DNA of 64,000 nt from a bacterium (GCA_963693055.1 OY843751.1:576001-640000); one strand, 5' to 3'. Counted from the stretch's first letter, positions 3,588 to 48,000 are shown. Made by a program: numbers and translations. Notes: a model not told the origin generated them from the letters alone.

Positions 3588-6578
3588 TTACCTGTGAATC
3601 CGTAAACCAAATACATAAGATTTATACTCACCCCAGTATACATTGTCGCTCCAGGTCCTCAGTATCTTGGGGTTAGTCAGCTCGTCCGTACCTAATTCGT
3701 CAAGTCTGCCCGAGTTCCACAGATCATCATAATAATCTTCTTTGCTGTCTCCACCGGGAATATTGCGGAACTTGGAGTGTAGAATGTTACTTACATCCAT
3801 ATAGAATTCCATGTTGGTGTTGAACATAGAGAATACTCTTGAAAAGCGCATGTTTGCCCAATATTGATTCAATTCCTTGAACCAGACATCCGGGTGTTCA
3901 TCATTAAAGCTATCACGCGGATGTTTCCTTCGTGTTCCGCCTTTATAAAAGACCTGGAAGCTAAGGTTTGAGTTGGAAACCAGCGGAAACTTGCCGATTT
4001 TGGGGCCCCAATCTGCCGGCGCAGAAAGTGTGATTACACCACGAGCATCTGGCTGGATGTAATTGATATTGGAACGCGGAACCCCCCACAAAACACCATT
4101 ATTACCAATGTTGGGATCATCAGTGATAATTGGGATATTGCTCAGATTTGGAATCTCGAGGTTGGCTTCACTTTCTTTAATAAAGTTGTAATTGAACCAA
4201 CCGGTAACAAAACGCCCCATGGGTTTACGCAATTCAATTTCAATACCGCGAATTTCTTTATAGTTGTTTTGGTCATACCATTCCAGTACCAGAGTTTGAT
4301 CTCCGTGGGCATAAACCATTCCACTTTCGTATCCGTCATAATCTTTGTAAAAAGCACCAAAGTGCAATTGCAGATCGTATTTGATTCCAAAATCCGCACC
4401 CAACTCGTATGCAATATTGGTTGGAAAATCAATATCCGCGTTACCCATGAATGTAACACGGGGTAGAGACCAGTCAACCATGGTGTGGTAAAGCACTTCA
4501 CTTGCCGCTACCTGAACAAAGTGACCATAGTTGAAATATATTTTACTTCGGTCAGACAGGGGGTGCGATATACCCACACGTGGACTGAAATAGACTTTGG
4601 GTTTGGGTCTAAACGTAGGGTATTTATTGTTTACATAATCGTTGAACAGATCTTCATTGGTATCATACGTGAGAGCTTGATGTGGATCGGGACGGTCGCA
4701 ATTTACATCAAAATAATCCATACGTAAACCAATGTTGGCAATCATACCTTGAAATTCCACTTTGTCTTGAACAAATGCTGCCATTTCAAGTGGGAAAACA
4801 TGGTAATTGTGAGTAAACAGTTGTGTTGAATCACCTTCGTGCCAGTGTGTACGATCTTCAAGCATATCATTGTACGAGAATTCCAAACCTGCTTTTAACT
4901 CGTGAGCAGGATGAAATTGGCTGGTCAATTCAGCTTTTAAAGTGGTAGCGTTGTGGTGGGACTTGTCCCATGTGTCTGCACCGCCATACATTTCGAATTC
5001 ATTATAGGGATCTTCTACACCATTTGCCCTTGATATCCAACCGGATTGTGGATCATAATATAAACGTCCGTGAAAATAGCGTCCGTCTTCTGCTTTTGCT
5101 GAATCGGGGCGACCAATGTTCCAGTTGATGTTCAAATGGCTAAGTTTTATTTCATAAAATGTGGTAGGTGATAGTGTGTGTGTAAATGTTGCACCAGCAA
5201 CCGTTGTATAGCGGTTTAATATTGGACGATAGAACGGATAGTACATGTATTCGCCACGAAGGTCTGTGCCATCATATTCAACACGGTCTTCATGACTCCA
5301 ACTGCTGTTAGATTTACCTTCGGTGACAGATCTGACTTCTGAGTACATATTGTTCAGGGTCAGTTTCATGTTGGGAGAAAGGGTGTTAACTATTTTTAAA
5401 GATCCTATCCGTTCATCATAATACCGGCGTGATTGCGGGTATTGAAAAGGTCTGTACTCAAATTTCCCACCGAGTAAAAAGTTTGATTTCCAGGGTAAAA
5501 TGGGGACCCTGCCAGACAAGGTTGCGTCAATATTGTGGCCGGTTTTATTACCGTATTCAACCGGGCGATGACGCCATTGCCATAGTTCAAATGCTTCTTC
5601 TGCTGACAGGTCGTTGCTGGGATCCGGATCATTTGCAAGTTCTTCTGCGTAAGCATTCCAACCGATCCAGGTATATTCATCATCGTGAATACCGTCTGGT
5701 ACCAGAATAGAACCGCCATCAAATGCGTTAGCACCAGCCTTTAATAACCATTCGGTACGATAGGCATGATCATATTTATCGCGACCTACGTGGCCTTTTT
5801 GAGCAGGAGTTAACTGGTAATCCAGTGAAAAGTGTAAACGGTCTTCAGGATTTTTAGTAATCACATTGATCACACCTGAGCGGGACTGGCCATATTCCGC
5901 GTTAAACCCGTTACGCATAAGTTTAATCTCTTCTACCGCACCGGGTTGAATAGAGATTACAGGACGGTTAAATTTTTGGTCAAACATATCCATACCGTCC
6001 ATTAAAAAGCCCACTTCCATTGCGTCACCTTCACGGATTTTGATCTCGCCTTCCATAATGTTTCCACTGACGCCTGACTGCAGGCTGATAATTTCTTCTA
6101 CACGATTGGCAAACGGAGTGTTCTGGTAATCACTCTCTGAAATATAACTTTCTGTACTGGCAACATCCGTTTTGATGATATCACGTTGGGCTTGTACAAC
6201 AACTTCGCCGCCTATATCAAGTACTTCCTGGTCCAGATCAAAATTGATTGTAGTTGTACGGTCAACACTTACATGAACGTTCTGTTTCAGTTGTTTACCG
6301 TAACCAATGATAGATGCAGTGACCGAATAGGTACCTGGCGGTACCTGCAGAATGATAAATTCACCGTCAATGTTGGATGCTGCACCAATTGAACCATCAA
6401 AAGGAATCTCTTTTCCTTCCTGCCAAACATGACTAATAAAGATGTTGGCACCTGGCAGTCGTGCACCGTCAGCCACATCTTTGATTGTACCACGGATCTT
6501 ACCAGTTACACCTCCAAATACTGATAGAGGTAGAATTATGAATAACAGTACATATTTCTTGATCCACTGATATTTCAT
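3588..6578 (-). CDS. TonB-dependent receptor with N-terminal carboxypeptidase-regulatory-like domain
   Basis: Start revised to MKYQWI (GGAGA SD); GKIRGTIKD...LPGANI...GTYSVTASIIGY; plug motif GFNAEYGQSRSGVINVITK; barrel motifs SPRVGISHP and YFNYGHF. Confidence 0.92.
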   Translation of the reverse strand: MKYQWIKKYVLLFIILPLSVFGGVTGKIRGTIKDVADGARLPGANIFISHVWQEGKEIPFDGSIGAASNIDGEFIILQVPPGTYSVTASIIGYGKQLKQNVHVSVDRTTTINFDLDQEVLDIGGEVVVQAQRDIIKTDVASTESYISESDYQNTPFANRVEEIISLQSGVSGNIMEGEIKIREGDAMEVGFLMDGMDMFDQKFNRPVISIQPGAVEEIKLMRNGFNAEYGQSRSGVINVITKNPEDRLHFSLDYQLTPAQKGHVGRDKYDHAYRTEWLLKAGANAFDGGSILVPDGIHDDEYTWIGWNAYAEELANDPDPSNDLSAEEAFELWQWRHRPVEYGNKTGHNIDATLSGRVPILPWKSNFLLGGKFEYRPFQYPQSRRYYDERIGSLKIVNTLSPNMKLTLNNMYSEVRSVTEGKSNSSWSHEDRVEYDGTDLRGEYMYYPFYRPILNRYTTVAGATFTHTLSPTTFYEIKLSHLNINWNIGRPDSAKAEDGRYFHGRLYYDPQSGWISRANGVEDPYNEFEMYGGADTWDKSHHNATTLKAELTSQFHPAHELKAGLEFSYNDMLEDRTHWHEGDSTQLFTHNYHVFPLEMAAFVQDKVEFQGMIANIGLRMDYFDVNCDRPDPHQALTYDTNEDLFNDYVNNKYPTFRPKPKVYFSPRVGISHPLSDRSKIYFNYGHFVQVAASEVLYHTMVDWSLPRVTFMGNADIDFPTNIAYELGADFGIKYDLQLHFGAFYKDYDGYESGMVYAHGDQTLVLEWYDQNNYKEIRGIEIELRKPMGRFVTGWFNYNFIKESEANLEIPNLSNIPIITDDPNIGNNGVLWGVPRSNINYIQPDARGVITLSAPADWGPKIGKFPLVSNSNLSFQVFYKGGTRRKHPRDSFNDEHPDVWFKELNQYWANMRFSRVFSMFNTNMEFYMDVSNILHSKFRNIPGGDSKEDYYDDLWNSGRLDELGTDELTNPKILRTWSDNVYWGEYKSYVFGLRIHR

Positions 6579-6703
6579 AAGGTCTCCTTCCCGAAATATA
6601 TTGTTTATCAAATTTTTCCAGAGTTAAATTACCAATTATTCATTAATCCGATATTAACGGATTGTTAATTTTCAACTGAATGATATTTTGATCATTTACT
6701 TGG

Positions 6704-6721
6704 TAAGCAAACGTTTGCCTA
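6704..6721. promoter_or_regulatory. LacI/GalR-family operator
   Basis: TAAGCAAACGTTTGCCTA, with a perfect core palindrome GCAAACGTTTGC and central CG, about 125 bp upstream of the TBDR start. Confidence 0.7.
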
Positions 6722-7050
6722 ATTTATGTATAAATATGCTATAACTGAGAAAGAACTCTTAATTATTCTTGACAAAATTTCTATAGTGTGATATTTTATT
6801 GTTTTGGGAACGGTTGATTCTGAATGATGAGATGTTTGTTAAAAAAGTGATCATGTTATATATTTTTTTTAACATGTTGATAAACTGAATCAGCATTTTT
6901 TTGTATGAGCAACTGATCTTGTTTCTTTTTATGGGTCTGTTAATTGTTGAAATCACTGTTTAATATATATTGAAATTACATAGAATGCAATAATTTTATA
7001 TATATTTTTGTGATTTTTCTTTAATAATGCGTTATAAATGTTTGTCAAGT

Positions 7051-7079
7051 AAAAAGGCAACTGTAAATCAGTTGCCTTT
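7051..7079 (-). terminator. Rho-independent terminator of the ALDH...MFS operon
   Basis: AAAAAGGCAACTG-TAAAT-CAGTTGCCTTT just past the MFS stop. Confidence 0.85.
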
Positions 7080-7086
7080 ATTTATA

Positions 7087-8352
7087 TTAAAGATTTGATG
7101 TTCCGCGTTTGGATTTAAACCATAAAAGAAAAGTAAGTGCTGTTCCCAGAGTAGCCACTATGACCAGCATCATAAAAATGGGTACCAGATCGTGATTATA
7201 GGTTTCGTAGAGAAAACCAATGATTTCTTCCTGAAAGATAGGGCCAATTGAGCCAATGCCATTTATAATGCCTGCGGCAGCAAGTGCGCTTTTTTTAGAT
7301 GTGACATCAATAGCGCCAACTCCGGAGAGTAGTGAGTCAGGACCGTAAAGCATGAATCCGGCAAGTCCCATAGAGATGGTAAAATAGAGAACGCTGTTTG
7401 CACCCAAAGTATACATGATAAAGAATGAAACGGTCATGAAAAATAACATCAAGAATGCAATCAATGAGCGTTTACCTTTGAATAATTTGTCTGACGCCCA
7501 GCCCGCAAAAATAACACCTGCAAAACCGGTCAAATCAAATATAGTGGACAAGTATCCCGCTTCATCACCCTGTAGTGCAAAGTTTTTATTCAGGAAAAAG
7601 GGTGCCCAGCTCCAAAGAGAATATCTCAGGAATTTAATGCAAAAGTAAACCATTCCCATAAGAACAACTGTAAAGATGACGTCTTTTGACCATTTTTCAT
7701 CTTTATCGTTTTCTTCTGTTTCTTCTTCATCATCTTCTTTTAAAGGTTCAAGACCAGCATCTTCCGGCTTGTTGGGATGAATTAAAAGAACAACCGCCCA
7801 AACAACGAGAAGTACAATTGATGCACCAAAAAATGACCATCTCCAACCTGCCAGGCCCAAAAGAAATGCGGCAAATGAACTTGCTGCCAGTGAACCGACC
7901 TGGTAGCAGGTAGACCAAACGCCTAATATGGTACCGCGTTGTTTGCGTTTATACCAGAATGCCAAACTACCTATGCAGCCCGGCCAACCGGTACCCTGAG
8001 CAAGACCATTTAAACTCAGGAATAACATTATAGTCCAATAACTGTTGGATATTCCGAACATGAAATTACAAAATAATGAAATTCCCATTCCAATGAGTAA
8101 TAACAGCTTGGGACCCAGTTTTTTACCGAAAAATGCACTGGAGAATTGACCTACCATGTAGAAAACAAGGTACGCGGTCCCCAGATGTGCCAGGTCAATG
8201 GCAGTCATTCCCAGATCACCAGCCATTGCACTTTTTACTACATAGAAAGCTTTACGACAAAAATAGTACCCGGCATAAGAAAGCCAGGTAGCGGCAAATA
8301 TTTTAACCTGCCAGGGCCGATAAGCATTTTTAATTGATACTTGCTCTTTCAT
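7087..8352 (-). CDS. MFS transporter, organophosphate:Pi antiporter (GlpT/UhpT-like) family
   Basis: YAGYYFCRK, QGTGWP, RGTILGVWST and YGP motifs; about 12 hydrophobic segments. Confidence 0.85.
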   Translation of the reverse strand: MKEQVSIKNAYRPWQVKIFAATWLSYAGYYFCRKAFYVVKSAMAGDLGMTAIDLAHLGTAYLVFYMVGQFSSAFFGKKLGPKLLLLIGMGISLFCNFMFGISNSYWTIMLFLSLNGLAQGTGWPGCIGSLAFWYKRKQRGTILGVWSTCYQVGSLAASSFAAFLLGLAGWRWSFFGASIVLLVVWAVVLLIHPNKPEDAGLEPLKEDDEEETEENDKDEKWSKDVIFTVVLMGMVYFCIKFLRYSLWSWAPFFLNKNFALQGDEAGYLSTIFDLTGFAGVIFAGWASDKLFKGKRSLIAFLMLFFMTVSFFIMYTLGANSVLYFTISMGLAGFMLYGPDSLLSGVGAIDVTSKKSALAAAGIINGIGSIGPIFQEEIIGFLYETYNHDLVPIFMMLVIVATLGTALTFLLWFKSKRGTSNL

Positions 8353-36535: not shown

Positions 36536-37945
36536 TTAGCTATTTTTTATTGCGAGTTGTTTCAGCAGTGCACGATTGATTTTGAGGTCGTTGCCAGTCT
36601 GTCCAGGCCAGGGGTAAAAACGTACCGGGTGTTTGAATTTTTCCAGGTTTTGTTCAAGGTGTAGACGAATGACTGTCTCTTTGATCGGGTTGCCGCTGTA
36701 TTGTAGTAACGCAACCGGGCGTTCTCCGAATTCATCATCCGGGGTGGGCACAACAATGCACTGGGTTATCCCCTTGATCTGCTCGATGCATCTTTCAATC
36801 TCTTCCGGTTGGATATTCTCTCCACCGGAAATAAACATATTGTCCAGCCGTCCCGTTACATTCAGGCAGTCCTTTTCGTCCAGATTCCCACGGTCCCCGG
36901 TGTGGAACCAGCCATTTTGATCTACCACGCTGTGTATTCCGTGTTGATCAAAATATCCCTGAAATAAGGTCTTTCCTTTGACGCGTATCTCTCCCTGATT
37001 TGAAAATGACAGCTTCCGGTGTGGCAGCAATCTGCCGCTGGTGGACAATTCTTTTGCATCAGCACCGGCTTGGGTCGTGGTGATTTGAGACGCCATTTCT
37101 GTTGATCCGTAACTGGTGTGGATTGGAAGGTTGTATGCTATTGCCTGCTCAATCAGCGATGCGGGAATTGCGCTTCCGCCCAAAAGGATGGCCTTTAAAG
37201 ACTGCAAGGCCGAGATTGTATCGGGATTGGTCAACATGCGCGCCAACTGGGTGCTGACCAGTGATATGTGCGTAATGCTCTGATTTTTGATCAGAGATTC
37301 CAAAGGTTCTTCTTTTAAAGGAATTACCACTGCTGCTCCGGCAAGAAAGCAGCGGAACAAAGGGGCGATTCCACCTACATGAAACAAGGGAAGAGAGAGC
37401 AGCCAGCGGTCCTCCGGCTGGACCGGGATGTTGGTATTGGATCCTAATGCGTTATACAAATGGTTCGACAGTGTGTGCATTACCGCTTTGGGATTGCCTG
37501 TGCTCCCGGATGTAAATATCAATGTAGCGGGAGAATCTGTTTGCATTTTTATGGAATCAATAGGATCTGTGGTGTTATTAAAAGATGTAATGTTTAATGT
37601 TTGGATGCCTGGAAAATGTGCATCTTCGTTATCGGTGATCAGGGATTTGCATCCAACCTGCTGCATGCGTTGTTGTAATGTTGATAATGGCAGTCGGGTG
37701 CTGAGAGGCATCATAATCATGCCGGCCATCCATCCGCCCAGGAGCGTGGTGATGTATTGAGTGGAGTGTTCTGCTAAAATGGAAATGACAGATCCTTGAG
37801 CCATGTTCTTTTTGAACGAGGCCGCCGCTGTTGCGCTCTGAGCGGTCAGTTGTGCATAGCTCAAAGCGTCTTTATCGGAAATGACTGCCAGGCGTTCAGC
37901 ATGTATGGCGGTATCCGGAAAGATAATGTAATCGGGGATAGTCAT
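36536..37945 (-). CDS. menE: o-succinylbenzoate-CoA ligase
   Basis: FTSGSTGNPK, LPLFHVGG, YGSTEMASQ, FISGGENIQPEEIE; follows menC. Confidence 0.9.
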   Translation of the reverse strand: MTIPDYIIFPDTAIHAERLAVISDKDALSYAQLTAQSATAAASFKKNMAQGSVISILAEHSTQYITTLLGGWMAGMIMMPLSTRLPLSTLQQRMQQVGCKSLITDNEDAHFPGIQTLNITSFNNTTDPIDSIKMQTDSPATLIFTSGSTGNPKAVMHTLSNHLYNALGSNTNIPVQPEDRWLLSLPLFHVGGIAPLFRCFLAGAAVVIPLKEEPLESLIKNQSITHISLVSTQLARMLTNPDTISALQSLKAILLGGSAIPASLIEQAIAYNLPIHTSYGSTEMASQITTTQAGADAKELSTSGRLLPHRKLSFSNQGEIRVKGKTLFQGYFDQHGIHSVVDQNGWFHTGDRGNLDEKDCLNVTGRLDNMFISGGENIQPEEIERCIEQIKGITQCIVVPTPDDEFGERPVALLQYSGNPIKETVIRLHLEQNLEKFKHPVRFYPWPGQTGNDLKINRALLKQLAIKNS

Positions 37946-39018
37946 AGTAACATCCTTTGCAGGATGCTGTGATTCAATTCAGGCGCGTTACCGGCTAAAC
38001 CGTATTTACCATTCTCTGTTTTAAAGGGAGGAGTGATAGCATCGCCGTTTAGCCAGCGCCAGGTATCCAGGCCTGCCGCGGTATCTGGTCCCGAAAGCGC
38101 CGCTGAAAGTCTGGCGTAAAATTGCAATGCCAATCCGCTGTCAAATACGCTGGTAATTATAGATTTAATGTTCTGACGTTTTGCTTTGTCAGCCAGTAAA
38201 AGTGTGTTGGAAAGCGGACCCAAAACAGCCGGTTTTAAAATAATGGCTCTCACCCAATCCGGTAGAGGCGTTTCTTCTTGATTGAACAGCGTCAGGGATT
38301 CATCCAGCGCAATGGGGACGGCTACCTGATCTGCGAGTTCCTGCAATTGAAGGGGATTGGTAAGCGGTTCTTCAATGTATTCAATATTGTCCGTGTTTAT
38401 GTTCTGTATAAAAGTACTCGCATCTTTGAATGACCATGCGCGGTTGGCATCAAGCCGCAGGACAATTATATTTTTAAATGTTTGCTGAATTTTATGAATC
38501 CGATCAATCTCTGTGTCTACCGGATTTCCACCCACTTTGATTTTGATGGTTGTATAACCCTGTTGTAACCAGGATTTGATCTGTTCTACATCATTATCCA
38601 TGTTGCGGGTGAGCAGTGCATTTATTTTTATTGAATCCGGAGCGCTATCATTGATTATGTACTGTATGGGTTCACCCTTCACTGCGGATATTAATCCGAG
38701 TTTTGCCATATCCAGGCCAAAAGCGACAGATGGAGGCAGAGAAAGCGGTTGCTGATGGTTTGGTATGTTTTCAGGGATGGGTGTATTTTTAATTATAGAG
38801 ATGTTATTTTTCAGTATAGTCAGACAGTCGCTCAGGCTTTCGGCATGCAATCCCGGCAGCGGGGAAATATCTCCATAGCCGGCATTTCCATGCTTATCAG
38901 ATAATTCAATAATGAATCCCGAGCGGTTGAGGATTTTTTGATCGGCTACAACCAGCGGAGTTATTAAAGGTAGGTCGTACCGGTACAGATTGATATTTTT
39001 TATGCTTACAGGTTCCAT
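37942..39018 (-). CDS. menC: o-succinylbenzoate synthase
   Basis: GDISPLPG, KIKVG, LRLDANRAW, YIEEP, IALDESL and GLDT. Confidence 0.9.
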   Translation of the reverse strand: MEPVSIKNINLYRYDLPLITPLVVADQKILNRSGFIIELSDKHGNAGYGDISPLPGLHAESLSDCLTILKNNISIIKNTPIPENIPNHQQPLSLPPSVAFGLDMAKLGLISAVKGEPIQYIINDSAPDSIKINALLTRNMDNDVEQIKSWLQQGYTTIKIKVGGNPVDTEIDRIHKIQQTFKNIIVLRLDANRAWSFKDASTFIQNINTDNIEYIEEPLTNPLQLQELADQVAVPIALDESLTLFNQEETPLPDWVRAIILKPAVLGPLSNTLLLADKAKRQNIKSIITSVFDSGLALQFYARLSAALSGPDTAAGLDTWRWLNGDAITPPFKTENGKYGLAGNAPELNHSILQRMLL

Positions 39019-39896
39019 CCTATGGCAAATAACAGGCTGTAAATGAAAAGGATCTGACCGGTTTGGGCCAGTACTTTGTTGAATATACGTCCCGGTTCTG
39101 TATTGAGAATTGTTTTAAATGCCGGTATTGCCAGCAGTAAAATTAAAAATGTAATGAGCACCCAGTCTTTTCCGGGATTCAAAAGAGCAAAAATTGCAGT
39201 GATAAACATACCACCGATGATACAAACCAGATATTCAGCTCGCGCAAACGTTTCTCCAAATCGAACAGCCAGGGTGCGTTTACCGGACTGCTTGTCCTGA
39301 TGGATGTCACGCAAGTTGTTAATGGTTAGAATAGCAGTGGAAAATAAACCGGGGACGAGACCCAGTAATAACACTGTTGAATTAATATCAAGTGCCTGGA
39401 CATAATAGGTGCCGCCAACTGCAACGGGACCGAAAAAAATAAGAACAAATAGATCACCCAATCCATTATAACCCAGCGGATAAGGTCCACCGGTATAGGC
39501 GATGCCGGACAAGATGGAGAGAACCCCAATGACGACAATGGGCCAACCGCCACGCCAGATAAGATAAAGACCAAAAACTGCGGCAAGGCCAAACGTGATG
39601 AGAAATGCCCGTTTCATGGCTTTGGCCGTTACAAGTCCCGCGGCCGTGGCACGTGTAGGACCCAGGCGATCATCATCATCAGCTCCTTTTTGATGGTCAT
39701 AATAGTCATTGGCATAGTTGGTGCCAATTTGGATTAACAACGCTCCAATGCCGGCAAAAAGGGCTGCAAGGAAATGAAACGATTGATCAGCAGCAGCTAA
39801 ACCGGTGCCCATAATGACAGGTGCAAGGGCAGCGGGCAGGGTTTTAGGTCTGCCTGCATCTATCCAGACGGACAGGGACAAGGGTTTGAGCTTCAT
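39006..39896 (-). CDS. menA: 1,4-dihydroxy-2-naphthoate polyprenyltransferase
   Basis: RPKTL, NYANDYYD, YTGGPYP and NNLRDI..D...GKRTLAVR. Confidence 0.93.
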   Translation of the reverse strand: MKLKPLSLSVWIDAGRPKTLPAALAPVIMGTGLAAADQSFHFLAALFAGIGALLIQIGTNYANDYYDHQKGADDDDRLGPTRATAAGLVTAKAMKRAFLITFGLAAVFGLYLIWRGGWPIVVIGVLSILSGIAYTGGPYPLGYNGLGDLFVLIFFGPVAVGGTYYVQALDINSTVLLLGLVPGLFSTAILTINNLRDIHQDKQSGKRTLAVRFGETFARAEYLVCIIGGMFITAIFALLNPGKDWVLITFLILLLAIPAFKTILNTEPGRIFNKVLAQTGQILFIYSLLFAIGWNL

Positions 39897-40549
39897 ATCA
39901 GTTCCAAGGGTTCGGTGAAATGGTGTGGTTCAATGTACCAGATATTTTTGATATCTTCAATCACTATATCTCTGCTGTACGCGAGAATAAACAGGTCACG
40001 TTTCTTTTTAAATCCCTGTACTTCAAGAGGTATTTCGCCTCTTGCTTTGATTTTTAATTTAACGGTTTTCAGGTCAATTTTACATTTCAGGGTTTTGATA
40101 GCGTCCGAATGAGAGCGATCCAATCCGTCCGCCAGTCTCAACAGTGCAGCAAGTTTGAGTACTCTGAGACGGTCCCATGCTGTTAATCTGGTATAATTTA
40201 TATGTTTTTTACGCGGAAGTTTTCTACTGTGATATCGTGCAATATTACCAATAACCAGCTTTTGTCTGTCATTCCAGCCTTCGAGCGAGCTTTTTTCAAT
40301 AATAGATAAAGAGTTTTTATGGTGCTGTTTTTTGCCCTGAACGTAACCAATGTCATGCAGTATTGCGGCAGCTTCCAGCATATCACGTTCGGTGTTGCCA
40401 TAACCATGCAGCGGTTGTAATTGATCAAATAGCTGTAGCGCCAGATTCTTGACCTGCAGAATATGTGCCGGTTCCTGTTCCAGTTCATACATTAACCGAA
40501 TTGCAGAATCGTAGCGTAACCGTGATTTTTTTGATCTTTTTTTATTCAT
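39893..40549 (-). CDS. Stand-alone HD-domain protein homologous to the Ppx/GppA C-terminal region
   Basis: H...V..LA..LFD, AAILHDIG, HHK.S, ARYH and LRLADGLDRSH. Confidence 0.85.
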   Translation of the reverse strand: MNKKRSKKSRLRYDSAIRLMYELEQEPAHILQVKNLALQLFDQLQPLHGYGNTERDMLEAAAILHDIGYVQGKKQHHKNSLSIIEKSSLEGWNDRQKLVIGNIARYHSRKLPRKKHINYTRLTAWDRLRVLKLAALLRLADGLDRSHSDAIKTLKCKIDLKTVKLKIKARGEIPLEVQGFKKKRDLFILAYSRDIVIEDIKNIWYIEPHHFTEPLELI

Positions 40550-41447
40550 TCTCTAGCAAAACTCCGAACATCAGGTCACGCAGACTGACATGTGCCAATG
40601 ATAATTGAAAATGCTCTAATATTGTATCAACCAGAGTTGCACCGGTGAAAATAACATCACTCCTGTCAGGATGCAAACCGATTATTTGTTTCCGTTCCTG
40701 AATTGTCTTAACAAATAAATCCGCTAAAATATTTTGTAAATTTCTTTTTTCAATAACGGATTTGTGAGATTGCTCTCCATTGCGGATGTCAATTTTTCTA
40801 TCCATCATTGCCAGTGTGGTTGCCGTACCTCCAACAAAAATGACAGCCTCTGCCTGAAAAGGCTCAAGTTGATTTTTAAGGGTGGCTAAAGTAAAGCTAC
40901 GCAATTTATCCGCTTCCTCCTGTGTTGGAGGATCATTATGGATAAAGCGAGTAGTCAGGCGACGGCTGCCAATGTCGAGGCTTTTATATTTCAGAATATT
41001 GTTATCTCGGGCAAAAATAAACTCTGTACTTCCACCACCAATATCACAAACCAGATAATTGCCACGCATTTCAAAATCGCTCATTGCACCATTAAAACTC
41101 ATTAATGCTTCAGTATCCCCGGATAATAACCTGGGTTTAATACCTGAGTGACTCAAAATGAGGTCAAAAAACGCGTCACGGTTTTGGGCGTCACGTGTTG
41201 CACTGGTTGCAAAAGCTTTAACTTTTTCTGCTTTGTATTGCTCTATGATTGTTTTATAATCAGCAATTGCATGAACAACACGCATCATGGCTTCTTGGGA
41301 AAGATTGCCCTGTGCGTCAAAACCTTTTCCCAGACGGGTTATGGTATCTATCATTTTTAGCGGAGTGAGGGAACCGTCCGGTTTTTTTTCTGCAATTAGC
41401 AGTCTGGTTGAATTGGTTCCAATATCTATAGATGCAATAATGGACAT
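40542..41447 (-). CDS. ppx: Ppx/GppA exopolyphosphatase, short form
   Basis: DIGTNSTRL, ATSATRDA, DIGGGSTE, GGTAT and R.DVI. Confidence 0.88.
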   Translation of the reverse strand: MSIIASIDIGTNSTRLLIAEKKPDGSLTPLKMIDTITRLGKGFDAQGNLSQEAMMRVVHAIADYKTIIEQYKAEKVKAFATSATRDAQNRDAFFDLILSHSGIKPRLLSGDTEALMSFNGAMSDFEMRGNYLVCDIGGGSTEFIFARDNNILKYKSLDIGSRRLTTRFIHNDPPTQEEADKLRSFTLATLKNQLEPFQAEAVIFVGGTATTLAMMDRKIDIRNGEQSHKSVIEKRNLQNILADLFVKTIQERKQIIGLHPDRSDVIFTGATLVDTILEHFQLSLAHVSLRDLMFGVLLENE

Positions 41448-41490: not shown

Positions 41491-41808
41491 TTAGTCGTTA
41501 CCCAGTTTAATCAGTATCATTTCAATAGTATCATTGATTTTTTTAATATCTTTGATCCGGCCTTTTTGAGGCTTTAATTTTAATAATTTCAGGCTTTCCA
41601 GCATTTCAGCAAGTTCATCTCTGTCTTGAGCGCCTTCGGGCAGGTCCTGCAATTCCGATGCTGTCAGGTTGTTAATGCTCCACACCATTTTAGCTTCAAG
41701 ATTGGCTTGGTACCGTTGTACAATATCGCGAAACTGAATACGTAATGCAGTCACTTCAGCGATGATTTCCTGGCGCAGCTTTTCCGGATTTTTCTTTTTA
41801 TCTATCAT
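41491..41808 (-). CDS. Small helical protein with basic C-terminal motif
   Basis: 105 aa; overlaps the upstream kinase stop by 4 nt; KLKPQKGRIKDIKK. Confidence 0.75.
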   Translation of the reverse strand: MIDKKKNPEKLRQEIIAEVTALRIQFRDIVQRYQANLEAKMVWSINNLTASELQDLPEGAQDRDELAEMLESLKLLKLKPQKGRIKDIKKINDTIEMILIKLGND

Positions 41809-42494
41809 TTGGCTTTCTGTAACAAGAGTTCAATTTTTTTTTGCATATCCGCAGCTATGGTTCGTTGTGTACGGTTGCCGTTAATCATTTCAAAGTCATA
41901 TTGGTCGTGCAAGTTGCTGAATTCTGTTTTAATTTTGCGTTGATATTTGATAAAGCTTTCAAATACATCGCGAGATAAGCGGATATCCATGCCTGATTCC
42001 CAATAATCCAGTTGGTTTTTCTTTTGAAAATTTCTTTCAATCAGAAATCTGGGAGAAACATCGAGATAAAAAACCGCATCGGGAACCAATGCAAGGTTTT
42101 CATAAATGTTTTTCAACCAATCCGGATTAGCACCGCGAACAATGTCACGTGCCATTAATGTATAGATATATCTGTCTGCAAGCACAATAAACCCAGCCCG
42201 CAAAGCCGGAATGATAGTGTTTTCCATCTGGTCTGCAAAATCGGTTGCATAAAACAGACTCAGAGTGACAGGACTGAGAATGTTTCCCTGCATTGCCTGT
42301 TCCAGTTCCGCGCTTACCAGGTTTGAACGTTTTAATCCGACATTCACGGTTGCGTGACCGCTTCCTTCAAGCCAGTTGGTAAGGAGTCGTATTTGCGTTG
42401 AACGACCTGAACCATCTGCACCTTCAACTACGATCAGTTTTCCCGCCAGTTTATTTACATCGCAGCCGGGGATTCCCTTGCCGTAAAATTTCAT
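41805..42494 (-). CDS. Thymidylate-kinase-like protein B (Walker A Lys replaced by Arg)
   Basis: Start MKFYG; EGADGSGRSTQ; DFAD; LADRY; ARD.VRG; ESGMD. Confidence 0.85.
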   Translation of the reverse strand: MKFYGKGIPGCDVNKLAGKLIVVEGADGSGRSTQIRLLTNWLEGSGHATVNVGLKRSNLVSAELEQAMQGNILSPVTLSLFYATDFADQMENTIIPALRAGFIVLADRYIYTLMARDIVRGANPDWLKNIYENLALVPDAVFYLDVSPRFLIERNFQKKNQLDYWESGMDIRLSRDVFESFIKYQRKIKTEFSNLHDQYDFEMINGNRTQRTIAADMQKKIELLLQKAK

Positions 42495-42504
42495 GATAGT
42501 ATCC

Positions 42505-43185
42505 TTACTTTTTAAGTTTGAACGATGGTAAATCGAAACGTTCATTCACGAGTTCACGAACAGTTTGTTGCTGCTGATCAACAGGTGCTGTTGCATCTAT
42601 GATTGTAAAATTAAATTCTTTTGCCATATTGTCATAAGCATCATTAATGCGTCCCTGAAAAATTCTAAAACTTTCATAGGGATCGGGAGACAGGTTCAAG
42701 TCCATACCTGCTTCATGATATTTTAATTCCGGCCGTCCTTCAAGAATCCGGTTAATTGCCGTGTTGGGGTTGAGTTTGAAATAAAGTGTAACATCTGGAA
42801 CTGAGGCAAAACTGTAATTGCTTTTTACCCAATCAGGATCGCAACCTCTAACCGTGTCACGCGCAAATGCAGTAAAAAAGTATCTGTCTGCTAATACAAT
42901 GTAACCGGCGCGCAATAAAGGCCAGATCTGACGTTCATAACGGTCTGCAAAATCTGTACAGTGTATAAGAGAAAATGTTGTGGGTGTGAGTAGCTGACGT
43001 TTTTTCCCTTTTTTAGTTGCAGCTTTGACCAGTAATGAAGAATTCCACTCTGTGAAAAATACTTTATACTGTTCAAGCTCCAACCAACGCTTGAGCAGGT
43101 AAATCTGTGTGGATTTTCCTGATCCATCTAATCCTTCCACGGCAATCAGGCGGCCGGGTGCGTTGTGCTTTTGTATCTTGACCAT
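42505..43185 (-). CDS. Thymidylate-kinase-like protein A
   Basis: EGLDGSGKSTQ; DFADR; LADRY; ARD.VRG; EAGMD. Confidence 0.88.
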   Translation of the reverse strand: MVKIQKHNAPGRLIAVEGLDGSGKSTQIYLLKRWLELEQYKVFFTEWNSSLLVKAATKKGKKRQLLTPTTFSLIHCTDFADRYERQIWPLLRAGYIVLADRYFFTAFARDTVRGCDPDWVKSNYSFASVPDVTLYFKLNPNTAINRILEGRPELKYHEAGMDLNLSPDPYESFRIFQGRINDAYDNMAKEFNFTIIDATAPVDQQQQTVRELVNERFDLPSFKLKK

Positions 43186-44107: not shown

Positions 44108-44230
44108 TTGAAAAACCTGCTTTGTTATAATAGATAATATGTTTAAATTTGATATAATTTTCTAATATAGTAAAATTGTTTCCGGTTGTCAAGCTTTTCA
44201 GGACAGCCTGCTGATATTAAAGGAATTGTT

Positions 44231-45250
44231 ATGAATAAAAAATTTGACTGGAAAATAGCGGCGGGAATACTCGTCAGTCTGTTTTTTATGTATTTTGCCT
44301 TCCGCAAAGTAGATATCTCTCAAATGGGTTCGGCATTTGCAAAGGCCAATTATTGGTATTTGTTGCCAGTTGTGGTTATTCTGTTATTCAGTCATTTACT
44401 TAGGGCCTGGCGATGGAAGTTGTTGCTGACCCCGCTTGGAAATATCAGTATGCTGAATGTTTATTCCGCGCTCATGATTGGTTATATGGCAAATACCTTT
44501 GTGCCCGCACACCTGGGTGAGATTTTTAGGGCATATGTTGTGGGACGAAAGAGCGAAATTTCTTCTAGTGCTGTATTTGCCACGGTAGTGGTTGAGCGTG
44601 TGCTGGATATGATAAGCCTTGTTGTTTTGTTGGCGTTAACGCTGGTTATTTATCCATTTCCGGATTGGGTGAAAAAAAGCGGGTATATTTCTTTTGTGTT
44701 TATTGCCGTATTTGTTGCGGTGTTGGTACTTTTGAAGGTATTCAAAGAACCCGGTTTAAAGCTTTTAAAAAGAATATTGAGTATTTTTCCTGAAAAATTT
44801 AGTCTTACAATTTATGACCTGGTTAAATCCTTTTTGGATGGTATTGTTCCTCTGAAACATTGGCACCATTATTTCACAATCGTTGTTATAACGGTATTTA
44901 TGTGGGCCTGCTATGCTTTTATTTTCAATCTTTCCTTTTATGCTTTTGATTTTGTAAATGCTTATGATGTGCCCTGGAAAGCATCTTTAGCGCTGCTAGT
45001 TGTAACGACAATCAGTATTGCTGTGCCTTCATCTCCCGGATATGTGGGGACTTATCATTATCTTTGTCAGCAGGGTTTGAGCTGGTTCAATGTGCCTGAA
45101 AGTGAAGCGCTCAGCTTTGCATTTGTGGCGCATGGTATGAATTTTATACCTGTTTTGATACTTGGATTTTTCTTTTTGTCTTACGAAGGGTTGAGTTTCA
45201 GGAACCTGCAGAAAAAGCCAGATATACCTTTGACTGAAAAAACAGATTAA
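44231..45250 (+). CDS. Lysylphosphatidylglycerol-synthase TM / flippase-like (UPF0104) membrane protein
   Basis: RAWRW, N..VP.HLGE..R, ERVLD and PSSPG.VG. Confidence 0.87.
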   Translation: MNKKFDWKIAAGILVSLFFMYFAFRKVDISQMGSAFAKANYWYLLPVVVILLFSHLLRAWRWKLLLTPLGNISMLNVYSALMIGYMANTFVPAHLGEIFRAYVVGRKSEISSSAVFATVVVERVLDMISLVVLLALTLVIYPFPDWVKKSGYISFVFIAVFVAVLVLLKVFKEPGLKLLKRILSIFPEKFSLTIYDLVKSFLDGIVPLKHWHHYFTIVVITVFMWACYAFIFNLSFYAFDFVNAYDVPWKASLALLVVTTISIAVPSSPGYVGTYHYLCQQGLSWFNVPESEALSFAFVAHGMNFIPVLILGFFFLSYEGLSFRNLQKKPDIPLTEKTD

Positions 45251-47649
45251 ACCATTAAAGCACTACTATATTCATCATTAACCGTATCGACCTGAATGAT
45301 CACCGGCAGCATATCTTTGATCGGTTCAATATGGGTAATGATGAATACCTGCCTGAACTGGGTTGAAAGCTGCCCCAAAGCTGTTAAAATTAAATCACGT
45401 CGCTCTGAATCCTGCGATCCAAAAATCTCATCTAAAACAATAAAGTTGACCGGTGCACCACCACTGCGTTCAGCTACAATCTGGCTGATTGCTATGCGTA
45501 AACAGAGATTGGCAAGATCCTGCTCTCCACCGGAAAACCTACCAATGGGAAAGGATTCGCTGCCGTCATAAATACGGATGTTGTAATCGTTGTCCAGTTC
45601 CATCAGGTTGTAACGCGAGTGTGTAGTCAGAGCAAGTAATGCGGATGCCTGTTGTGCGATGAGCGGCCGCACCCGGGAAGCCAATTCGGACCGGAATGTG
45701 CCAAAATGTTTATCCAGAGCATTGAGATACAGGATCTCTTCTTTGATGGTTTGTATATTGTCCCGAATTTCTTTTTGTGCTTTAATTTCAGACTCTATAG
45801 CATCAAGCCGTGTTTTGAGTTCGGCAAGCTTTTCACGGGAACCGGCAAGCACTTGTTTTGCCTCATCGGCTTCACGTGACTGCATATCTACCTGGCTCTT
45901 TGAGGTATTGTAAGCAGTTGGGTCAAAATTAAGGTTTTTTTGACGATCAAGCAGGGATTTGATATCATTTTCGAGCTGTTTGATGTTTTTGTCTGTAATA
46001 GAAATATCTTTTTCTACTCCGGACTTTCGTTTAACCTGCTCTTCGGCACGAGCGGTTTTATTTTTGATCTCGAGCAGGGACTCATATTGAGCTTTTAAAG
46101 CGTCATGTTCATCTTTAGAGTAGGGAGTGTCTCCCAACTGGTCCAGTTCTTTTTGAACAAGCTCGAGTTGTTGCGTATAGCTTGTAATGGTTTCCTGGAT
46201 TCGGTTTTGTACATCAACCGCTTCAAGGGCTCGCTGTTGTTTTTTAAACAACTGTTCACGTTCACCGCGTATTTTGCGAATGGATTGTTCGGTTTCTTTG
46301 AGCTTTTCATCTATATCTGCTTCTTTATTTTTGAGCGAAACCAGATCTGCTCGCAGCTTTTTTAAAAGCTGGTCCATTTCTTCAGAAACGGAATGCAGAT
46401 GGTCTCCCAGTCGCTGTGAACACAGGGGGCATTTACCATCCGGTCCAATCTCTTTGAGCTGATCCAGTTTTTTACGCTCTTTTTGTCCCTGCTCGGTAAT
46501 AGCAAGTGTTGAACCTTTAATCTCTGTCAATTGCTGCTGCAAATGTTTCTGTTTTTCTTCAGCCTGTTTTTCCTGCCCGGACAACTGATCGATCTGTTTT
46601 TCAATTTCTTTCAGGTCCTGAGCTTTTGCCTGATATTCGGAAAATCGCTTTTCTTCGCGTGAGATGTTTTCCTGCATGCGCATTTGTTCTTTTAATCGCG
46701 ATTGGCGGGCAGTATCATTAAGCTGTTCACGGTCCATCTGTTCTTTTTTGGCTTTGATCTCGCTAAAGGGGGCAAGCTGGATTTCCAGTTCTTTTAATGT
46801 TTTTTCTGCCTGCAGGATGTTCTCAAGATCGGTTTGAGAGCGGGACAACATCTCGTTGCTGCCTTCCAGGCTTGAACGAGTACGACCCAGTTGAGAGTCA
46901 AGGTCGATAAACTGCTCGCGCAATACTGAAAGTTTTTCAAATTCGGTTTTGCTCTCGGCAAGTGCTTTGGTTTTTTGTTCTACAAGATCGGTTTGGTTTT
47001 TAACGGTTTCGGTTTGTGTTGTGTGGGATTTTTTTATATCCTCAAGTGTTTGCTTCAATTCATCAATATCTTTTAATGAGGAAACCTGGCCGTTCATGAA
47101 CTGTTGTTTATTGTTGCGGTCGATACGGACTTGTTTACGAGCCGAATCGATTTTGTCTATACCAATTAATCGGTTAATGCTTTTACGGCGCTCTTCAGGT
47201 GACAGGGAGGATAGCTTGTCAAGGTCCTTTTGTCTTGCAAAAACCGAAGCGGTAAAAGCGTTATAATCCAGTTGCAACAGGTTCTGGATGAACTCGTCTA
47301 CGCCACGGTCCTGCACCGCTACAGGATCGTCGTTACCATCCCGGTAAACCGCAGCTTCACTGGTAGCGTTTTTCCCCTTGAGCTTGCGGACAATCTTGTA
47401 TTCATGATCACCAAAATTAAAGGTCATTTCCACAATGCATTGAGATTTATCCGGGGCGTTTTGTGAACGGATATCCTGTTTTTCAGTCCTTCCCAGGCGG
47501 TTACCGTACAAAACCCATCCGATGGCTTCTATCAAAGTGGATTTACCAGAACCATTTCTGCCTATTATGCCGATGAGGTTTTCAGGGAATTCCAGTTCGA
47601 GTGAGCTGAAACGGCGATAATTTTCCAATTTGAGTGTTTTTATGATCAT
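45247..47649 (-). CDS. sbcC: SbcC/Rad50-family SMC-like ATPase
   Basis: Start MIIKTLKLENYRRF; GRNGSGKST; long coiled coil with zinc hook CPLC; FSGGE; LDEIFGSQD; IITH. Confidence 0.88.
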   Translation of the reverse strand: MIIKTLKLENYRRFSSLELEFPENLIGIIGRNGSGKSTLIEAIGWVLYGNRLGRTEKQDIRSQNAPDKSQCIVEMTFNFGDHEYKIVRKLKGKNATSEAAVYRDGNDDPVAVQDRGVDEFIQNLLQLDYNAFTASVFARQKDLDKLSSLSPEERRKSINRLIGIDKIDSARKQVRIDRNNKQQFMNGQVSSLKDIDELKQTLEDIKKSHTTQTETVKNQTDLVEQKTKALAESKTEFEKLSVLREQFIDLDSQLGRTRSSLEGSNEMLSRSQTDLENILQAEKTLKELEIQLAPFSEIKAKKEQMDREQLNDTARQSRLKEQMRMQENISREEKRFSEYQAKAQDLKEIEKQIDQLSGQEKQAEEKQKHLQQQLTEIKGSTLAITEQGQKERKKLDQLKEIGPDGKCPLCSQRLGDHLHSVSEEMDQLLKKLRADLVSLKNKEADIDEKLKETEQSIRKIRGEREQLFKKQQRALEAVDVQNRIQETITSYTQQLELVQKELDQLGDTPYSKDEHDALKAQYESLLEIKNKTARAEEQVKRKSGVEKDISITDKNIKQLENDIKSLLDRQKNLNFDPTAYNTSKSQVDMQSREADEAKQVLAGSREKLAELKTRLDAIESEIKAQKEIRDNIQTIKEEILYLNALDKHFGTFRSELASRVRPLIAQQASALLALTTHSRYNLMELDNDYNIRIYDGSESFPIGRFSGGEQDLANLCLRIAISQIVAERSGGAPVNFIVLDEIFGSQDSERRDLILTALGQLSTQFRQVFIITHIEPIKDMLPVIIQVDTVNDEYSSALMV

Positions 47650-47799
47650 GTTGTGAACCCTTTTTGGTGATATATAATATAAAGAAAAATGTGAAAAATT
47701 AACATGAATTTTTATGAAATACTTGTTTTTTTTGTCAATCTTTATTATATTCAATGCTACAACTGTGTTTACAAGCGAGTTTATATATAGGAGATTCTC

Positions 47800-48000
47800 A
47801 TGGCTAAGAAACAAATGACATTTGAACAAAAGGTGAGCAAAGGCCACGCTCCCAACGACAAATACGTACAAGTTGTATGTGCTTATAAATCAGAAGCAGA
47901 TACCTGGAAATACAAACAAAAAAATGTACGTATTCCTGATGGACAAAATGAAGATCAGGTTGTTGACAGTGAGATTAAAAGAATTCAGGCTACTGCATAA
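47800..48000 (+). CDS. Small basic protein, DUF4295/ribosomal bL38-like
   Basis: AGGAG SD; MAKK...YVQVV..YKS...TWKY pattern recalls DUF4295. Confidence 0.45.
   Translation: MAKKQMTFEQKVSKGHAPNDKYVQVVCAYKSEADTWKYKQKNVRIPDGQNEDQVVDSEIKRIQATA

Follow-up and report, generated by a model that had tools for sequence, protein, structure and literature searches.

A bacterial PPK3-type kinase gene pair followed by a conserved gene for a small helical protein, a candidate polyphosphate-binding accessory

The family-3 polyphosphate kinase of Sulfolobus acidocaldarius (SaPPK3) is composed of Saci_2019 (cPPK3) and Saci_2020 (rPPK3), which are encoded in an operon with the order sixA-ppx-cPPK3-rPPK3-CHAD (PMC12995831; bioRxiv 10.1101/2024.08.28.610084). 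Saci_2019 was found to be a reversible polyphosphate (polyP) kinase; Saci_2020, itself inactive, increases its activity 6- to 10-fold. The enzyme is active as two purified proteins that form an alpha2beta2 oligomer, and the reaction strongly favors ATP formation. A third Sulfolobus gene encodes the real dTMP kinase, and the PPK3 orthologs were described as lacking dTMP kinase activity. The r subunits were reported to lack the polyP cleft, and loss of the arginine of the DRX motif was given as the explanation for the inactivity of rPPK3 (PMC12995831). The S. tokodaii protein STK_15430 (the chain in PDB entry 5h70) was named as a homolog of cPPK3, and two-subunit PPK3 operons were predicted in scattered bacteria, with Chloracidobacterium listed in Data S1 (PMC12995831). 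Because bacterial PPK3 operons have already been predicted in that study, the kinase pair described below is not new in itself. The sole PPK3 for which an assay was found in the literature is the archaeal enzyme, with its strong bias toward ATP.

The locus compared here lies on the minus strand of a 64,000-nucleotide stretch of bacterial DNA (the window), to which all coordinates refer unless a contig or locus is named. Gene A (42505-43185, 226 aa) encodes a cPPK3-like protein, likely the catalytic subunit, with a GSGKST Walker A motif (43108-43125) and a DRY motif. Gene B (41805-42494, 229 aa from its likely start) encodes a partner subunit of the rPPK3 clade, in which the Walker A motif is GSGRST (42396-42413), GLKRS is present, and DRY is retained. 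The open frame of gene B runs from 41805 to 42545, beyond this start; the real start is likely at 42494, 10 nt past the stop of gene A, where AAGGA is found 7 nt upstream and where the starts of homologs agree. Gene C (41491-41808, 105 aa), whose ORF includes KLKPQKGRIKDIKK, belongs to a family of all-helical proteins that has no name and is encoded behind the genes for rPPK3, and its ATG overlaps the stop of gene B (ATGA). Its motif K79-P-x-K-G-R-x-K-D87 (41548-41574) is located in the loop preceding the last helix, and the near-invariant R23 is encoded at 41740-41742. After 43 nt follows a gene for the Ppx/GppA catalytic domains (40542-41447, 301 aa), the only ppx match of the genome, the stop of which is overlapped by a stand-alone gene for Ppx/GppA domain III (HD domain; 39893-40549, 218 aa). 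A preliminary description of this DNA had noted a coupled, basic 105-aa protein followed by ppx. The coupling and the Lys/Arg patch hold, but the protein is not basic overall (pI 7.9), and ppx, though in the expected place, comes as two separate genes, one catalytic and one for the HD domain. The same split was seen in the close relatives L010-L021 and in L061/L062. The GC content of the operon genes (0.39-0.42) matches that of the window (0.41), and a scan for promoters and terminators returned consensus matches only. The A-B-C arrangement recurs across phyla and is, therefore, not due to chance.

Genes A and B encode paralogs (41% identity over 211 aa), and both match the Pfam family Thymidylate_kin. 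Their scores against the dTMP kinase model TIGR00041 (80.5 for A and 77.9 for B) are under its cut-off of 83.25, and the site of the Tmk EP motif reads TEWNSS in A and VGLKRS in B, as compared with FRDPG in the true Tmk of the genome. The latter is encoded by a separate canonical tmk at C1:244712, which scores 160.5 bits and is thus above the same cut-off. Both proteins share with PPK2 (PF03976) and dTMP kinase (TIGR00041) the P-loop kinase core, the Walker A motif, and DRX, but neither matches the PF03976 profile, both are outside the Tmk group, and the genome has its own PPK2 and Tmk. Among proteins of solved structure, both match best to the S. tokodaii chain in PDB 2plr/5h70, with E values of 6.5e-65 for A and 6.8e-41 for B, as against 6.4e-11 and 7.9e-14, respectively, for the best true Tmk. 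Identity to STK_15430 is 50% over 208 aa for A and 39% for B, and A shows 30% identity to the r neighbor of this c-type protein. The closest named relatives of A include records of “candidate division KSB1” (80-83% identity). An AlphaFold model of gene B (pLDDT 83.6) gave 5h70 as its best Foldseek match (TMq 0.84, rmsd 1.9 Å), and Tmk structures among the matches listed reached TMq values of 0.66-0.74, which assigns the model to the dTMP kinase fold and not to that of PPK2. The S. tokodaii protein (PDB 2plr, 4nzy, 4rzx, and 5h70; deposited as “probable thymidylate kinase”) thus has the same fold as the B model; it differs from the present system in the DGY that replaces DRY in its partner and in the absence of C from its operon.

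The phylogenetic position of the pair was determined with FastTree from 141 sequences and 214 columns, comprising 35 bacterial-type loci, 28 archaeal loci, the window pair, and 14 Tmk-like sequences, with PPK2 left out. Archaeal A-B pairs were gathered from a set of 401 genomes centered on a Bathyarchaeota record. The tree was anchored by a locus (L154/L181, from G392) with the order SixA-ppx-c-r-CHAD, the A protein of which (L154_A) matches the 5h70 chain without a difference over 210 aa. The 127 A/B sequences were split from the 14 Tmk-like sequences with a support of 1.0 and a branch of 1.30. All 63 B-type sequences formed one clade (support 1.0), to which the neighbor of the 5h70-identical gene belongs, and the A-type sequences were not recovered as a single clade. 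A and B thus fail as canonical dTMP kinases by score, by motif, and by position in the tree, and they belong with the PPK3 subunits. As such close relatives, they likely do the same job, and it is very probable, from sequence comparison, that together they constitute a PPK3.

Signature residues were compared in 85 bacterial-type A proteins (among them a few from Bathyarchaeia) and 28 archaeal ones. EWNSS, K61, DRY, R109, R113, R146, R151, and K155 are nearly fixed in this set, and every A group shows conservation of K61, K62, R82, R85, R151, K155, and R210; the A protein of the window has all of these basic residues (K61, K62, R82, R85, R109, R113, R146, R151, K155, and R210). R82, R85, and K155 are found in all A groups and are absent from B, which fits the division into c and r subunits made in PMC12995831, and A appears to agree at the residue level with the cleft residues named there. 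The Walker A lysine is replaced by arginine in all 80 bacterial-type B proteins, in all 14 B proteins of loci L140-153, and in 10 of the 14 Sulfolobales-like ones, and this arginine is an r-type mark. The DRX arginine behaves differently. It is kept in the same 80 and 14 B proteins (which also keep R109 and a conserved K/R-R pair, GLKRS) and is replaced by glycine only in the Sulfolobales-like B, where all 14 show the change. Its loss, therefore, looks lineage-specific, and B belongs to the r clade without being of the Arg-less Sulfolobales type. It follows that the reason given in PMC12995831 for the inactive r subunit is not transferable to bacteria. B may be inactive anyway, owing to its altered Walker A motif and to the residues that it lacks in the cleft.

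In summary of the comparison with SaPPK3 (PMC12995831), the two systems share tandem c-then-r paralogs of the dTMP kinase fold beside ppx, a separate true tmk, the lost EP motif, the basic cleft residues of A, and the r-type Walker A arginine of B. They differ in the 105-aa gene behind the r subunit, which takes the slot held by CHAD in archaea, in the DRX arginine and R109 kept by B of the window, in the split ppx, in the lack of CHAD and SixA in the operon, and in the two PPK2 genes of the host. The host genome is 100% complete. A search with the PPK1 profile gave no match in it. Two PPK2 genes were found above cut-off, so that there is no gap that PPK3 would have to fill. PPK3 hosts were described in the text of PMC12995831 as being mostly without PPK1 and PPK2, and the present host, therefore, agrees in the former and differs in the latter. 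CHAD and SixA are absent from this operon and present in many related loci; elsewhere, the genome has one match to CHAD (C1:4.72 Mb) and a match to His_Phos_1 (C1:2.68 Mb).

Several statements of the preliminary description can be judged from these data. The two TMK-fold paralogs with GSGKST and GSGRST and without the Tmk motif are as it described them, and its statement on two TMK-annotated subunits encoded next to PPX in S. acidocaldarius is confirmed by PMC12995831. It had called for a phylogeny with true Tmk and archaeal PPK3, and for searches for a separate canonical tmk and for ppk1/ppk2; the tree and the tmk gene came out as its reading predicted, and the last search gave a divided answer, with ppk1 unmatched and two ppk2 genes present. 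Its proposal of a PPK3-type system under a tmk annotation is consistent with the best solved relative, the tree, the separate tmk, the c/r signatures, and the ppx neighborhood, all of which point the same way.

The new part of the finding is gene C, from which a helical protein family without a name was defined; its hallmark is the near-invariant motif R...KPxKGRxKD. A word-indexed search recovered only two close relatives of gene C; a full HMMER scan gave 68 representatives, and a profile search gave 86 proteins, all unnamed or “hypothetical”. Among 270 distinct family sequences, the motif residues K79 (262), P80 (250), K82 (262), G83 (269), R84 (268), and D87 (269), as well as R23 (257), are conserved. 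The protein of the window contains 19 Lys and Arg and 18 Asp and Glu residues and is thus nearly neutral overall and basic in its patch only; the median pI of the family is 9.5. C is far faster-evolving than its neighbors, with a mean identity of 28% (59-row set) as compared with 68% for A and 64% for B, and its distances correlate only weakly with theirs (Spearman 0.30 for C-A and 0.35 for C-B, versus 0.54 for A-B). The AlphaFold model of C is all-helical (pLDDT 92.5), with helices at residues 8-49, 58-74, and 85-101. Comparison of the family with Pfam (109 members) and NCBIfam (146 members) yielded scattered weak rows with at most three members per family, a PDB sequence search with the gene C profile gave nothing under E 0.5, and Foldseek found no PDB match to the model at E 0.001. 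The best VIA match had a Z score of 6.6 (rmsd 2.6, 63 aligned), with generic helical rows only, which is no proof of a new fold. In the ESM Atlas, one unnamed cluster at 0.77 provides a lead only. Longer or fused forms of C were sought between 250 and 2000 aa and none were found, which is weak evidence.

Couplings between R23 and K79, K82, or D87 in the C family also appeared in column shuffles and were rejected as conservation artefacts. The pairs E18-K74, R27-E38, F26-L37, F26-Y33, and V19-M41 were outside the top shuffled pairs, and all four helix-1 pairs with z > 3 were in one antiparallel band; as this band was picked after looking, it gives no more than a weak indication that C forms an antiparallel dimer. 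An assignment of C to CHAD was also rejected, since none of the 109 members matched CHAD (PF05235) at E 0.01 and HHalign against the CHAD alignment gave a probability of 0.4%. A small conserved neighbor is not mentioned in the main text, supplementary legends, or Tables S2-S3 of PMC12995831, and a search of the openly accessible literature on PPK3 and on accessories of polyP operons revealed no other relevant paper.

The linkage of C to the kinase pair was examined in the best 80 of 466 A loci, a set biased to close relatives. C was located directly behind B in 60 of these, was absent in 16, and the remaining 4 loci were cut off. The C-bearing records include some titled KSB1, Geobacter, Terriglobia, Verrucomicrobia, Sumerlaeota, Latescibacterota, Nitrospinota, and Dehalococcoidales. 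In the 60 C loci, ppx lies directly behind C in 14, ppx or its HD gene is found somewhere in 40, and CHAD is present in 22, usually as the next gene; this co-occurrence led to rejection of C as a CHAD substitute. Two other phyla were sampled with 201 genomes each, centered on a Terriglobia record (G169) and a Geobacter record (G168), with the limits that each sample includes its center genome, chosen for having A, and that kin are not independent. C was found in 27 of these 402 genomes combined, always behind an A-B pair. In the Terriglobia-centered sample, all 22 genomes with C had the order A-B-C; 31 genomes had a PPK3-like match, among which 8 divergent pairs and 1 single match were without C, and C was found in none of the 170 genomes without such a match. 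In the Geobacter-centered sample, the same 5 of 201 genomes carried C and A-B, in adjacent positions. In the phylum of the window itself (167 genomes), the A-B pair was present in 30, C in 33, and both in 28.

In a tree of 126 operons, from which Sulfolobales-like pairs were dropped by a length filter, a clade of 23 (support 0.998) was without C, and C was present in 87 of the 103 others. Within the C-bearing branch, at least 15 operons were without C. No C was detected in 29 archaeal PPK3 loci searched within about 1.5 kb of A, and 20 of these showed CHAD. A 96% complete genome (G091) has the order A-B-ppx and gave no C match. C is thus absent from archaeal and from some bacterial PPK3 operons, which argues for an accessory and not an obligatory part. 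Several loci in these sets show other arrangements. G103 contains two near-equal A-B-C copies (C26:125434-127118 and C12:1364-3051), by duplication or by contamination of the bin (4%). In three Bathyarchaeota loci (L028 4935-8358, L053 4935-8271, and L057 4935-6584), the A frame runs into B-like sequence, by fusion or frameshift, and in L028 and L053, CHAD and SixA share a single ORF. A ROK-family kinase gene, identified by Pfam, follows the C-less PPK3 pair of L060 (6389-7438); similar ORFs follow C-less pairs in L061, L062, L071, L076, and L088, with the Pfam check made on L060 only. PolyP-dependent glucokinases are ROK proteins. In L051, a two-domain PPK2 is encoded directly behind the PPK3 pair (6410-7903).

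Natural losses of A and B offer a second view of this linkage. Five genomes of the window's own phylum have C without an intact A-B pair. G100 and G101 (90% and 95% complete) keep C-ppx and have no A or B in the genome; their C frames are open and of full length, but the motif is altered in the one (KTDQGRLKD) and destroyed in the other (DPLQDSFKE). Since both are from one genus, they probably represent one loss event. The flanking genes common to the window and these two genomes mark the syntenic site of the loss: upstream of the operon, the window (44186-47871) contains a flippase-like (TIGR00374) gene and a gene for a Rad50/SbcC-like ATPase, and the C-ppx locus is flanked by a flippase-like gene in G100 and by flippase-like and Rad50/SbcC-like genes in G101. 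In G166 (100% complete; L227 3335-3770), the order is CHAD-ppx-C. A and B have been deleted there, and comparison with two intact congeners shows a frameshift in C, possibly an assembly error. In G164, fragments of A and B with stops, seen as fused broken remnants at L188 1-366, lie just upstream of an intact C with a perfect motif. The locus of G163 is cut off by a contig edge and gives no information on the fate of C. In three of the four informative genomes without A-B, from two genera, C has thus decayed and ppx is kept. A CYTH-domain gene was observed behind C in genus g71 (L227 2859-3335, in G166), and similar ORFs (L187 2404-2949 and L188 696-1241) follow C in G163 and G164. CYTH/TTM enzymes can cleave short polyphosphates, and Saci_0718 is mentioned in this context (PMC12995831).

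Taken together, it is probable that A and B form a PPK3 heteromer and that C, which accompanies one large branch of bacterial PPK3, is its likely accessory and probably grips polyP through the conserved Lys/Arg motif. By homology with SaPPK3 (PMC12995831), the heteromer would move phosphate between polyP and ADP/ATP, with A catalytic, B activating it by oligomerization, and the reaction reversible and biased to ATP. The Ppx next door, judging from its family, would hydrolyze the polymer, and C, from its sequence, might bind polyP or another phosphate chain and hold it at the kinase. It is highly improbable that A and B are instead thymidylate (or other NMP) kinase paralogs with an incidental link to polyP, for although Pfam and NCBIfam return Thymidylate_kin and dTMP kinase (just below cut-off) and the PDB title of 5h70 is “dTMP kinase”, a canonical tmk lies elsewhere, the EP motif is replaced, the tree separates A and B from Tmk, the Sulfolobus orthologs were described as being without dTMP kinase activity (PMC12995831), and the neighbors of A-B across loci are ppx, CHAD, SixA, ROK kinase, and PPK2 genes. 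The alternative that bacterial B is catalytic in its own right and has a specificity of its own, such as another nucleotide or the other direction, draws on the DRX arginine kept in the 80 bacterial-type and 14 L140-153 B proteins, on R109, R113, and R146, which B also keeps, and on its own K/R-R pair. It is nevertheless doubtful, given the arginine in place of the Walker A lysine and the missing R82, R85, and K155, the latter being consistent with r subunits that lack the polyP cleft (PMC12995831).

The only fixed positions of C lie on a single loop (Lys, Arg, Gly, Pro, and Asp), apart from one Arg in a helix, and their occurrence in a polyP operon is most simply read as a binding site for a phosphate chain; polyP tethering is favored. 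C is quite likely a dedicated part of the PPK3 module, the chances that it binds polyP are about even as judged from its residues, and its being a stoichiometric subunit seems unlikely. Nucleic acids and acidic proteins are further possible ligands of a basic motif besides polyP, which speaks against the favored reading. The proposal of the preliminary description, by which the small protein would be an uncharacterized polyP-binding or assembly factor, gains support from comparison: the family is conserved, its basic motif is near-invariant, and C is closely tied to A-B and subject to decay after their loss. C could also be a genuine subunit beside A and B that contacts the kinase protein and assists in its assembly or activation, with the KGRxKD loop as the docking surface or as the completion of an active site. 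Its constant place next after B, which it commonly follows at a distance of a few bases and to which it is translationally coupled in the window, its confinement to one PPK3 branch, and its decay in G100, G101, and G166 would agree with such a role, but the C-less operons inside that branch, the much faster evolution of C, and conserved residues that are almost all charged, and would better suit a ligand site than a protein interface, make this unlikely on balance. Still less probable is a general partner of polyP granules or of Ppx, CHAD, or CYTH proteins that shares the operon without being tied to PPK3. The open C frames beside ppx in G100 and G101, the intact C next to the broken A-B of G164, the frequent ppx, HD, and CHAD neighbors, and the CYTH gene or similar ORFs behind C would fit such a partner; however, C was never seen without A-B in the 402 genomes of the two other phyla, and its motif or frame decays in three genomes in which ppx stays. 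ppx and CHAD are widespread families, and the Pfam controls for them gave matches in 10 and 6 of 14 genomes, respectively. A bolder and tentative proposal is that one large branch of bacterial PPK3 is a three-component system, in which C, a new polyP-binding fold and possibly an antiparallel dimer, holds the growing chain at the kinase or sets direction or processivity, and B, with its retained catalytic arginine, takes part in catalysis beyond a scaffolding role; if true, this would add a new polyP-binding module beside CHAD, in an architecture unlike that of the archaeal enzyme.

For the favored reading, an accessory that grips polyP beside a PPK3 heteromer, the best model of how C may work is offered by CHAD domains, or phosins (PMC6537752, PMC6771595), which are likewise all-helical, basic, non-enzymatic, and encoded in polyP operons. 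C differs from them in that it has no sequence similarity to CHAD, is about one-third of the size, and co-occurs with CHAD instead of replacing it. As bacterial PPK3 operons are still labeled tmk, the polyP capacity of sediment, wastewater, and soil lineages is missed. The conserved third gene provides a handle on how the system is tuned, including whether polyP is synthesized, how the chain is held, and whether B is itself active. Binding of polyP by C, if real, would make it a new polyP-binding module of 105 aa, of use as a probe and in ATP regeneration driven by polyP; should C have no effect on A and B, what is left is one more ordinary member of a family already published. Downstream of the HD gene, menA, menC, and menE (36536-39896, minus strand) follow with 4-nt overlaps, and the polyP and menaquinone genes may, therefore, share a transcript in this genome.
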